64,000 nucleotides of DNA, from positions 2,005-66,004 of the forward strand of contig JAFUEH010000005.1 in the NCBI GenBank assembly GCA_017463985.1. The letters run 5' to 3'. The DNA is from Eubacterium sp. Its GTDB lineage: Bacteria > Bacillota > Clostridia > Oscillospirales > Acutalibacteraceae. Positions 58,138 to 59,970 of the stretch are shown here, in pieces (the stretch's first letter is position 1; each line of letters starts with the position of its first letter). Below the pieces are notes generated by a model. The model saw nothing but the letters and a program-made list of their open reading frames with translations. It did no database searches and was not told where the DNA came from. The position numbers were made by a program, and so were the translations under genes.

Positions 58138-59970
58138 TTAATTGCCCTTATCAATTAATAACTGTTTACTTCTCTCTGCCATTTCAAGATTTCTTTTAGC
58201 AGTGTTAATCTTTTCTTTTTTTAACGGTTTCCTCTTTTTGCCAATAATTCCAAAAACAATTGAAGCTATTGAGATTAAACCTACAAATCCAATAAATGCG
58301 TTTACATTTTCACTGGCTGTATGGACTTTGTCAACAAGAATGCACGTAATAATAAACTCTATTATTCCGAAAAACAGAGTAATTGTCGGTCTGTGCTCGT
58401 ATTTCAATATCTGCATTCTGTATTTATTTATTTCACTGTTAATCTTGTTGAGTTCAGCCTGATAGTCGCTATTATTGTTTTGATTTGCAGAAGAATTCTC
58501 AATCGGCTGGGGTTGACTAATAGCGCTTGCCTTAGTGCCTTGTGATGCCTCGTAAACAATATCGTCAATAGTTTTAGGCTGTTTACGCTCTTCCATAAAT
58601 CTTCTTGTGGTAGCATTTATTTCTCTTACTATTTGACTATATTCATCATCACCTAAAGAATAATCCAGAACGTCGCCAAACGAATCACTATTAACTTTCA
58701 TCTGAATCCATTGCTGCATATTTATTCTAATATCACGAGGTTTCGCACCATCTTGAGGACCAATAATGCCTTTTTCTTCAAGTTGATCCATAAGTTTTAC
58801 GCCTCTCGAATAACCTACGCTAAGTTTGCGTTGTAAAAAGGAGGTAGAGGCTCTTCCTTCTTGTAAAACAATTTCAACCGCTTGTTCAAATAATGGGTCA
58901 AGCATATCAGATTCTTTTTCATCTAACGCAAAGTTTGGATCGTTTTGGGCTGCTTTTTGTTCTATCTCGTTTTGAATCGCATCACCATAAACTTGTTTGG
59001 TAATATATTCCCTTAATTCACCAACAACTTCGTCGCTTATGTAACACGATTTTATTTGCTTTAACTCAGACGTACCTAATGGAAGATAGAGCATATCGCC
59101 AACTGTTGTAAGTCTTTCTGCACAACTACGGTCAAGTATATACCTGGATTCGGCTTTGGTGCGGAGGACAAAAGATAACTTTGATGGAATAGAATTCTTT
59201 ATTCTGTCGGGTAGAAACTTTCTGTCAGCCTGCAACGATGAAATAATTAAGTGCATTCCACAAATTCGTCCGTTTTGAATAATCTTTAGAACACTATCTT
59301 CTATTTCTTTTGGTACTTGTGAATACACTTGATAAAAATCATCAATGATGATTACCATAGGAGTCATAATCTCCATATCATCATGACTTTCAACAAATCT
59401 GTTGTATCCGTTAATATCGCGAACACCTGTATCTGAAAATGCCTGCATCCTTCTTAATGACTCAGAAACTGCCCAGCCAAGCGCACCACTTGCTTTCCTC
59501 GGATCGGTAATAATGGGCACAATTAAATTAGGCGAGTTATCGAAATCAACAAACTCTATTTTCTTTGGGTCAATCAATAACAGCTTGGGACTATAATAAT
59601 TGTGTTTACATAAGAAAGAGAATATTATTGAACGCAGGCAATTCGTTTTACCGTAACCCGAAGCGCCGGTAATAAGCAAATGCTGTAATTTTTCTAAATC
59701 GCCATAGATAAGATTTCCTTTATAATCCTTGCCTAAAGCGAAGGTCAGCTCACTGCTGTTATTTAAGAATTCTTTATTTTCGGTTAACTCTTTTATGTCA
59801 ACGTGGTAATCCGGCTTTTGAACTATAGTAAATCTATTGTTATCGCTTTTATTGCTATCGTCAAAGTAGAACACAGTTTGTTTTGTTCCGCATGATTCAC
59901 AAACAGCGATTTTATCACCCTTATTCAATGACAGATTGCCACCGCATATTTCACATTTTAATACTGCCAT
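58138..59970 (-). CDS. FtsK/SpoIIIE-family motor (alpha-beta-gamma) with N-terminal Zn ribbon and C-terminal TM anchors (gene C)
   Basis: CEICGG...CESCG. [14 protein letters not shown] (Walker A), [18 protein letters not shown] (Walker B-like), gamma-domain [57 protein letters not shown]. Two C-terminal TM helices. RBS AAGGAG. Confidence 0.9.
   Translation of the reverse strand: [610 protein letters not shown]

Follow-up and report, generated by a model that had tools for sequence, protein, structure and literature searches.

A derived FtsK beta-gamma protein with an N-terminal zinc ribbon in a putative conflict operon on a Clostridial mobile island

FtsK is, to our knowledge, the fastest known DNA motor. 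A stretch of 64,000 nucleotides of Eubacterium sp. DNA (contig JAFUEH010000005.1, positions 2,005 to 66,004; hereafter the window) encodes on its minus strand, at positions 58138-59970, an FtsK-like protein of 610 amino acids (aa) with an ATG start (MBQ9227474.1, here P0001). The protein consists of an N-terminal zinc ribbon (ZnR), FtsK beta and gamma domains, a Q/N-rich linker and a C-terminal two-helix membrane hairpin. This open reading frame (ORF) and domain order had been put forward in an initial annotation, and Pfam, hydropathy and an AlphaFold2 (AF2) model agree on both. We propose, with a probability of roughly 0.4, that this protein, a derived FtsK beta-gamma module, has ceased to pump DNA and provides the ATP-binding, DNA-reading output of a putative abortive-infection system.

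Canonical FtsK, as found in Pseudomonas aeruginosa (PaFtsK), in Escherichia coli and in a Clostridial relative (P0080), shares with the window protein a gamma domain and a beta domain with Walker A, the Walker B Asp and the arginines R620 and R548 in PaFtsK numbering. It is the best match in sequence and structure among the families tested, with a sequence E-value of 1e-54 compared with 1.6e-10 for TcpA, and the window protein descends from a Clostridial chromosomal FtsK. Unlike canonical FtsK, the window protein is without the N-terminal 4TM region, the long linker and the alpha domain; it has an N-terminal ZnR, a C-terminal hairpin and changed Glu, Gln and Arg residues, and its gene is part of an accessory operon carried by a mobile island. 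It scores 186 bits against the NCBIfam FtsK equivalog NF007615, for which the cut-off is 1566.

In the ternary conflict systems of the vWA-MoxR/VMAP type, predicted-inactive FtsK ATPase domains have been described in effector positions, and Kaur, Burroughs, Iyer and Aravind (2020) also recognized ‘effector-associated domain’ (EAD) adaptors common to several proteins of a locus (PMC7159879). The window protein resembles these systems in an FtsK ATPase domain whose catalytic Glu and phosphosensor Gln are replaced, the inactivity being judged from sequence, in the variable effector position, and in a small N-terminal domain common to several proteins of the locus. It differs from them in that the shared domain is a ZnR and not a described EAD, the partners are SPFH, 4TM and TIR proteins, and gamma is kept. 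No vWA, MoxR, VMAP or GTPase component was found in the window locus, and no vWA, MoxR or VMAP component in the loci of its relatives.

In Bacillus subtilis, YdjG combines a ZnR with transmembrane (TM) sequence, YdjH is a membrane protein, and YdjI is a soluble SPFH protein that needs both for the membrane and is reported with a zinc finger near its C-terminus (PMC8581546, PMC9239133). The likeness of PspA-YdjGHI to the window operon is one of architecture only: a ZnR-TM protein, a polytopic membrane protein and a Band_7_1 SPFH protein free of TM segments are encoded together. On this analogy, YdjGHI may be taken as the nearest characterised analogue of the SPFH scaffold considered below. The differences are that the window operon has no PspA-like gene and that the locus in Clostridia also encodes TIR or FtsK proteins and has a defence-island or mobile context. 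In one related locus, the SPFH partner (L100:188-1333) ends in a CxxC...CxxC zinc finger and not in SHOCT, a further likeness to YdjI.

TcpA of pCW3, the type IV coupling proteins (T4CPs) and Streptomyces TraB are, like the window protein, membrane-associated FtsK-like ATPases, and the C-terminal winged helix of TraB reads 8-bp repeats. They differ from the window protein, which has no N-terminal TM helices and no conserved linkage to a relaxase or type IV secretion system (T4SS), and whose catalytic residues are degenerate. A TraB-like transfer motor and a TcpA-like coupling protein had both been offered in the initial annotation, and neither idea held up. The NCBIfam plasmid_TraB model gives 15 bits against a cut-off of 800, the link to a relaxase is found only in island copies, and alpha, Glu and Arg are lost; for TcpA, both the sequence match and the structural match (Foldseek 6e-17, compared with 8e-25 for FtsK) are poorer than those of FtsK, and the partners are not transfer genes. 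Curated EssC/EccC models give 47-71 bits against cut-offs of 346-778, and the protein has a single ATPase domain, not a tandem. SspH (of SspFGH), Mad8 (of MADS) and HerA (of Sir2-HerA) share an ATPase core of the same superfamily and a defence context. The PADLOC SspH and mad8 models match the window protein with E-values of 1e-21 to 3e-19, over the generic ATPase core only, and Foldseek finds a distant match in the Sir2-HerA complex 8WOC. The window locus contains no partner gene of these systems, and we know of no FtsK gamma domain or zinc ribbon in their ATPases.

Domain architecture and motor residues

The segments of the protein, from N- to C-terminus, are as follows.

59866..59970, minus strand: CxxC...CxxC zinc ribbon, aa 1-35 (C6, C9, C24, C27; CxxC-14-CxxC)
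59803..59865, minus strand: short linker replacing the alpha domain, aa 36-56, in which at most the last alpha-domain strand appears to be left
59011..59802, minus strand: FtsK beta (RecA-type) domain, aa 57-320 (Pfam, alignment, AF2, Foldseek)
58699..58905, minus strand: FtsK gamma winged helix, class A, aa 356-424 (Pfam FtsK_gamma)
58390..58698, minus strand: Q/N-rich low-complexity linker with a long helix at 498-525, aa 425-527 (AF2)
58237..58389, minus strand: two-helix membrane hairpin, aa 528-578 (hydropathy, AF2)
58138..58236, minus strand: basic helical tail, predicted to be cytoplasmic, aa 579-610, and stop codon (sequence, AF2)

Pfam places FtsK_SpoIIIE on aa 59-244 (E 6e-34) and FtsK_gamma (PF09397) on aa 358-416 (E 7e-26), and the motif strings GASGYGKT (102-109), LIDPKKIEF and IIIDDF (207-212) are all found in the protein. 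The AF2 model, built from an alignment of 33 sequences, has a mean predicted local distance difference test score (pLDDT) of 73.6. The beta domain is modelled confidently (pLDDT 85-95 over aa 60-250), as are gamma and the helix at 498-525; the linker falls below 50 at aa 430-441 and 463-497. Within the ZnR, beta-hairpins are predicted at aa 12-35 with pLDDT 57-74. The top Foldseek structures for this model are the FtsK motors 6T8O, 2IUT and 2IUS (E about 1e-24), followed more weakly by TcpA and by EccC/EssC at 1e-13 or poorer. The four ZnR cysteines are retained in 9/10 relatives, and the same motif heads TPR-TIR membrane proteins in related loci.

The C-terminal TM helices proposed earlier are seen both as two hydrophobic segments (~528-548 and 556-578, with Kyte-Doolittle peaks of 2.2 and 2.55) and as coinciding AF2 helices at 531-551 and 556-576. 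The Lys/Arg-rich tail beyond the second helix fits an N-in/C-in hairpin. Two features had been overlooked in the initial annotation: the hairpin occurs in P0001 and in none of its relatives, and the alpha domain is absent. Pfam detects in the protein neither an N-terminal FtsK_4TM domain (PF13491) nor an alpha domain (PF17854), the latter present in almost every canonical relative of full length (>800 aa); the N-terminus is the ZnR, and the only hydrophobic helices are those at aa 528-578. A phmmer alignment to P. aeruginosa FtsK (PDB 2IUT) begins at chain residue 176, which is native residue 421, and aa 36-56 align opposite the end of the canonical alpha domain (alignment A3). The ZnR and ~20 residues stand in place of the alpha domain.

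The roles of PaFtsK residues in catalysis, phosphate sensing and DNA gripping have been assigned, and the alpha domain also grips DNA (PMC9410874). With a chain-to-native offset of 245, which sets K472 as the Walker A Lys, E596 as the catalytic Glu and R620 as the arginine finger, these positions were compared between 10 subfamily members and 23 canonical FtsK sequences.

K472, Walker A Lys: K108 here; kept in 10/10 of the subfamily; kept in canonical FtsK
D595, Walker B Asp: D210 here; kept in 10/10; kept in canonical FtsK
R620, arginine finger: R235 here; kept in 10/10; kept in canonical FtsK
R548, second trans-acting Arg: R184 here; kept in 9/10; kept in canonical FtsK
E596, catalytic Glu: D211 here; Asp in 10/10; Glu in 23/23 canonical
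D599, partner of R632: Q214 here; Gln in 9, Pro in 1; Asp in 23/23 canonical
T630, phosphosensor: S245 here; Ser in 8, Thr in 2; Thr in 23/23 canonical
Q631, phosphosensor: L246 here; Leu in 7, Ser in 2, Met in 1; Gln in 23/23 canonical
R632, loop-II DNA grip: Q247 here; Gln in 10/10; Arg in 23/23 canonical

Walker B had been read as DD in place of DE, and this second D is invariant in 10/10 family members. The position of the ATQRP motif had been read as LQAD; the divergence is real, but the register was off by one, the gap-free alignment placing ATQRP opposite S244-S245-L246-Q247-A248. An early doubt about ATPase competence was well founded, in so far as the aligned sequences indicate replacement of both the catalytic Glu and the phosphosensor Gln in all ten members. 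The elements for nucleotide binding and inter-subunit contact are retained, and the relay that couples hydrolysis to DNA grip and release is lost. From this combination of kept ATP-binding and arginine-finger residues with a lost relay, we infer a protein that binds ATP, probably oligomerises and does not translocate. If this is true, a DNA motor has been turned into a static, DNA-reading conflict module by a few coordinated substitutions and the loss of one domain, and the family would provide a natural separation-of-function allele for the coupling of hydrolysis to DNA grip through Glu596, Gln631 and Arg632.

A small family and its gamma domain

In a word-indexed search of 5.8 billion clusters, the ZnR and the DD signature occurred together in 10 (P0001-P0010), at 49-72% identity; all other matches were ordinary FtsK proteins of 830-880 aa at ~50-55% identity. 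An exhaustive search of 1.84 billion representatives with a hidden Markov model (HMM) gave 4 representatives at 800-942 bits, followed by a tandem-motor FtsK at 564 bits and then by canonical FtsK at 478 bits or less. No family member was present among 72,556 plasmids, 50,697 phage records and 2.9 million viral contigs, in which matches begin at residue 49-57 or later with identity below 60%, just 3 weak ones being from viral contigs. An N-terminal profile (alignment A1, aa 1-125) retrieved short ZnR fragments only and missed the family itself. Three tandem-motor FtsK proteins, P0241-P0243, which ranked next in the exhaustive search, were rejected as members, as the matching motor has the canonical DE and ATQRP. 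In one of them, P0243 (1048 aa), an N-terminal TIR-like segment (DEKYIFVSYAHKD...) precedes two FtsK motor units, one with altered Walker motifs (GGPQTGKT, VDDY) and the other canonical, so that TIR and FtsK are paired in a single polypeptide.

The tails of the family vary. Beyond the TM hairpin of P0001, there is a single TM helix followed by DUF6273 in P0006, an L7/L12-C-like module (aa ~455-500) in P0010, and soluble beta-rich domains in P0002, P0004, P0008 and P0009; P0003, P0005 and P0007 are short proteins with no tail domain. Since the C-termini differ in this way, the ‘inverted architecture’ described initially is one instance of a general layout of ZnR, FtsK beta-gamma and variable tail.

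The gamma domain had been called very FtsK-like, and it is indeed of genuine FtsK type and strongly constrained. In a comparison with 255 canonical FtsKs, beta domains are 52-91% identical inside the subfamily and 37-51% identical to the canonical proteins. Gamma domains fall into two classes: class A, in P0001, P0002 and P0004, is 85-91% identical to canonical gamma of the P0080/P0018 type, and class B, in P0006, P0009 and P0010, is 62-84% identical to that of the P0249/P0306/P0244 type. The two classes are ~40-49% alike, in canonical proteins as within the subfamily. Because beta groups the subfamily together whereas gamma splits it, gamma must have been exchanged with a canonical ftsK at least once.

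The best match to the gamma of P0001 among the 255 canonical proteins is that of P0080 (MBQ9228611.1), at 88-90% identity, whereas the two beta domains are only 47% identical. Both proteins are recorded as ‘MAG: Eubacterium sp.’ (MAG, metagenome-assembled genome), with accession numbers 1137 apart. The positions equivalent to those that read FtsK-orienting polar sequences (KOPS), S388, K392 and D395 (mapped from E. coli N1296, R1300 and E1303), are shared with class A canonical FtsK. We also rejected a recent origin of gamma by gene conversion from the present host, since neither the G + C content at third codon positions (GC3) nor codon use shows a recent copy. The GC3 of gamma is 26%, like the remainder of the gene, and the P0080 gene has ~52% GC; at residues identical between the two genes, identical codons are used in 39% of cases in gamma and 38% in beta, and synonymous sites are saturated in gamma as in beta. 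Purifying selection has kept gamma, and beta has drifted as far as 47% identity with P0080. The match of gamma to the resident FtsK favours host polar motifs, or a host Xer partner, over foreign DNA as what the module reads. Searches of both strands for KOPS (GGGNAGGG), the B. subtilis SpoIIIE recognition sequence (SRS; GAGAAGGG) and the Lactococcus motif gave 0-5 matches each, the 47-kb chromosomal part of the window being too short for such counts, and its length is likewise too small for the unbiased 7/8-mer skew analysis run over it to inform.

Related loci and the proposed role

The other loci of the family are chromosomal and resemble defence islands, with HsdR, Mrr, AAA_14/DUF4143, Phd/ParE and AbiE in their flanks. 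The FtsK variant has two constant partners, an SPFH/SHOCT protein, which is 74-86% identical across all FtsK-variant loci, and a polytopic membrane protein of ~230 aa (4TM). Two further partners are usual: a ribbon-helix-helix (RHH) protein, detected in L001, L004, L007 and L008 and not in L006, and a ZnR-TM protein of ~170 aa, found in L001, L006 and L007 and not in L004. Furthermore, L001, L004, L006 and L007 each add one to three proteins made up of ZnR, TPR, TIR, TPR, TM and a variable C-terminus (for example L001:15249-17654 and L004:13365-15989). These TIR proteins start with a near-identical ZnR, such as MAFFKCKMCGGTIEF...VCDSCGTKQT.

A scan of species-representative genomes with an alignment of the ZnR N-terminus gave >500 confirmed matches. 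From these, 80 loci matching the ZnR only were kept (L014-L093), and 80 more came from metagenomes (L100-L179); both censuses are anchored on the ZnR, and ‘core’ is defined relative to that anchor. Almost all genome loci are from Clostridia (Oscillospiraceae, Acutalibacteraceae, Lachnospiraceae, Christensenellaceae, Anaerovoracaceae and others), with a few contigs binned to other phyla. By tblastn, TIR is present in 80/80 of the genome loci, SPFH in 51/80, 4TM in 52/80 and RHH in 22/80, and SPFH and 4TM occur together in 49/80, as neighbours with a median start-to-start distance of 1271 nt. The metagenome loci contain TIR in 76/80, SPFH in 53/80 and 4TM in 60/80. The FtsK variant was found in 0/160 of these TIR-type loci; an FtsK match beside the TIR locus L100 was rejected as an ordinary chromosomal FtsK of 865 aa. 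The TIR/SPFH core is common in Clostridia, and the FtsK arm is rare. Neither PADLOC-DB 2.0, with its models for Thoeris and other TIR systems, nor a literature search on combinations of FtsK, SPFH, TIR and zinc ribbon returned a description of this system, the former giving no match for the SPFH, 4TM, ZnR-TM or ZnR-TPR-TIR proteins.

Among 62 other ZnR-headed proteins (alignment A4), TIR_2 is found in 55, TPR in 45, DUF6273 in 21, RCC1 in 12 and LRR in 4. The ZnR-TIR layout consists of a cytoplasmic ZnR-TPR-TIR part, one TM helix and an extracytoplasmic DUF6273, RCC1 or LRR part. The same layout is seen in P0006 (ZnR, FtsK beta-gamma, TM, DUF6273), with FtsK in place of TPR-TIR. We are tentative, to the same degree as for the output role, in regarding FtsK beta-gamma as one of several interchangeable cytoplasmic modules behind a common ZnR in a membrane conflict system of gut Clostridia. 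By joining TIR to extracellular repeats across one TM helix, the ZnR-TIR/SPFH system is reminiscent of Toll-like receptors (TLRs). In alignment A4, two members also contain a CIDE-N domain (best E 3e-11) and two others PRTRC_E; CIDE-N is known from animal apoptotic DNA-fragmentation factors.

In the mechanism that we propose, the ZnR would dock all ZnR proteins on the SPFH/4TM scaffold. A trigger would lead to clustering, upon which ATP-bound beta domains would assemble through their retained inter-subunit arginine fingers. The gamma domains would then bind host-type polar motifs of the KOPS/SRS class, or sequester a XerD-type recombinase. With hydrolysis slow or absent and no cycle of grip and release, the module would act as a clamp or a decoy, which would block chromosome segregation or dimer resolution and lead to growth arrest. 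The FtsK module would in this way take the output role held by TIR domains in sister proteins. The host-matched gamma suggests a mobile immune or addiction system aimed at the host FtsK-KOPS-Xer axis; no defence system targeting this axis was found described in the literature.

Several points weigh against the proposed output role. The model that it involves needs ring assembly in the absence of an alpha domain, and the AF2 prediction is of a monomer only. The putative immune role is read solely from gene neighbourhood, the partners lying outside the PADLOC models. No TIR protein is encoded in the window operon, whereas L007, the closest locus, encodes three TIR proteins and YaaC, so that the window operon could be a decaying derivative and not a working system. 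P0001 and P0080 are probably from one MAG, a judgement made by accession proximity only, and the likeness of gamma to the host FtsK does not appear to come from recent copying. Sequence alone does not separate an output from a DNA sensor, and a sensor or adaptor is the most credible of the alternatives, although it is itself unlikely. Here the tethered beta-gamma module would bind DNA at the membrane or monitor the chromosome, and an ATP switch would activate TIR proteins or other partners recruited by the ZnR. The retention of ATP-binding and arginine-finger residues with loss of those for hydrolysis and gripping is as in a switch; the variant coexists with one to three potential TIR effectors in L001, L004, L006 and L007, and in L001 and L004 it directly follows the RHH gene, a core-like position. 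However, the TIR/SPFH system is without the FtsK variant in all 160 sampled loci, which excludes the variant as the essential sensor; a host-matched gamma would read self motifs and not foreign ones; and the FtsK module fills the architectural slot of the TIR domain.

The remaining explanations differ in whether the protein still moves DNA or does anything at all. Since Asp sometimes replaces Glu as a catalytic base, the Asp found here could permit slow hydrolysis, and a slow active translocase of double-stranded DNA, for example pulling in, expelling or stripping injected DNA at the membrane, would agree with the retained Walker A, Walker B Asp and trans-acting arginines, with a cytoplasmic motor on a membrane anchor, and with the defence roles of FtsK-HerA ATPases and the matches to SspH and mad8. 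This we consider improbable: alpha is lost, the relay of Glu596, Gln631, Arg632 and Asp599 is replaced in all members, and the SspH and mad8 matches are limited to the generic ATPase core. It is more improbable still that the gene is a decaying or functionless leftover of an ftsK paralogue, truncated and sitting in an operon that lacks TIR and is degenerating. The family is tiny, the locus lacks YaaC and all three TIR genes that L007 has, and its RCC1 protein resembles the C-terminal half of a longer TIR protein; yet 10/10 clusters have intact ORFs and invariant nucleotide-binding residues at 49-72% overall identity, gamma retains its identity to P0080 at the amino acid level despite saturated synonymous sites, and the identical protein occurs on at least 11 contigs. 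The fixation of the same substitutions across the family points to selection for a new role. Least probable of all is a transfer protein of the island itself, either a coupling protein of the TcpA/T4CP kind or a TraB-like motor whose gamma reads a clt-like site. The island does have a relaxase and MobC with no coupling protein or T4SS of its own, and FtsK-family coupling proteins are known in Firmicutes from TcpA structures. But the relaxase and MobC homologues are restricted to copies of the window island, being absent from L001, L004, L006, L007 and the 160 related loci, which takes away the chief argument for a function in transfer or coupling. There is moreover no N-terminal TM anchor, the gamma is of chromosomal FtsK type, the similarity to TcpA and TraB is far below that to FtsK, the catalytic and DNA-gripping residues are lost, and the plasmid search found no family member.

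To return to the output role, its fullest version is doubtful. It would make the protein a rare arm of an undescribed but widespread immune system of gut Clostridia, in which receptors of TLR topology are held on a YdjGHI-like SPFH scaffold through a common ZnR. The FtsK variant would swap TIR for a translocation-dead beta-gamma module that halts host chromosome segregation or dimer resolution, either clamping host motifs or sequestering XerD, its gamma having been exchanged at least once to match the resident FtsK.

The operon and the mobile island in the window

The FtsK-like gene belongs to a minus-strand operon at 51949-60736, for which the following features are listed in addition to that gene.

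60725..60753, minus strand: sigma-70-like promoter match TTGACA-17-TACAAT, the best match at 11/12, a match to the consensus only
60494..60736, minus strand: RHH (CopG/RelB-like) protein, first gene of the operon (Pfam RHH_1, E 6.6e-07)
59988..60494, minus strand: 168-aa ZnR-TM protein with N-terminal ZnR, helical linker and two-helix membrane hairpin
56918..58051, minus strand: SPFH protein (Band_7_1, E 7.5e-36) with SHOCT (E 1.3e-05), both from Pfam
56200..56904, minus strand: ‘4TM-CC’, a polytopic membrane protein of 234 aa whose C-terminal helical domain is conserved and cytoplasmic
54700..56142, minus strand: 480-aa RCC1 protein with juxtamembrane repeats, one TM helix and an RCC1-repeat propeller (RCC1_2, E 8e-46)
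52675..54567, minus strand: 630-aa protein with ZnR, TPR, an unknown domain, two TM helices and two L7/L12-C-like repeats
51949-52662, minus strand: 237-aa protein, last gene (13 homologues; AF2 pLDDT 82)

The RHH protein is probably the regulator of the operon. RelB/BrnA-like antitoxin models of NCBIfam match it below cut-off, and homologous genes head L001, L004, L007 and L008. The ORF as called is likely too long, and the promoter-like site overlaps its first codons; since the relatives begin at an internal Met (MSDRKLKIT..., ~60688), the site falls upstream of the coding start. The gene for the 168-aa ZnR-TM protein lies 17 nt upstream of the FtsK-like gene, and its homologues in L001, L006 and L007 are 54-56% identical. 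The SPFH protein has a Gly/Ala-rich region and a C-terminal SHOCT and is without a membrane segment. No Pfam, NCBIfam or PADLOC family matches the 234-aa membrane protein.

The 480-aa RCC1 protein corresponds to the C-terminal half of the ZnR-TPR-TIR-TM-RCC1 type, without ZnR, TPR and TIR, by comparison with the 874-aa protein at L004:13365-15989. With no TIR gene and this half-length RCC1 protein, the window may contain the system in reduced form. The L7/L12-C-like repeats (aa ~500-630) lie at the cytoplasmic end of the 630-aa ZnR/TPR membrane protein, and such a module is also present in P0010; these repeats might recruit translational GTPases. The 237-aa protein has no fold match in the PDB at E <0.001. 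It was considered as a component of the system and rejected, as in L095 a 63%-identical homologue comes after an AAA_21 ATPase and a pair of MmeI-type methylase genes, and it is probably an independent defence-island gene.

From 2 to 47 kb, the window contains housekeeping genes (FeoB, alcohol dehydrogenases and others) at ~45-59% GC. After a tRNA-Asn gene comes a low-GC island (33-43%) of ~20 kb, an integrative mobilisable element that has neither a coupling protein nor T4SS genes. The following lie outside the operon.

47051-47126: tRNA-Asn, adjoining the island
47543-48949: MobA/VirD2-type relaxase
48852-49199: MobC/NikA
49871-51013: DUF6076
50982-51902: sigma-70-like gene
61470-62893: AbiEi/AbiEii
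63373-63918: IS30-type transposase, C-terminal part

The island also has a helix-turn-helix gene, listed between MobC/NikA and DUF6076, and a DUF6809 gene listed after the operon. A large serine recombinase lies immediately beyond the end of the window, after which the chromosome resumes, and the same island occurs in at least two different flanking contexts (L010/L011). At the left end of the window, a low-GC patch unrelated to the operon encodes a BspA-type leucine-rich-repeat protein at 393-1340 (LRR_5, E 2e-50).

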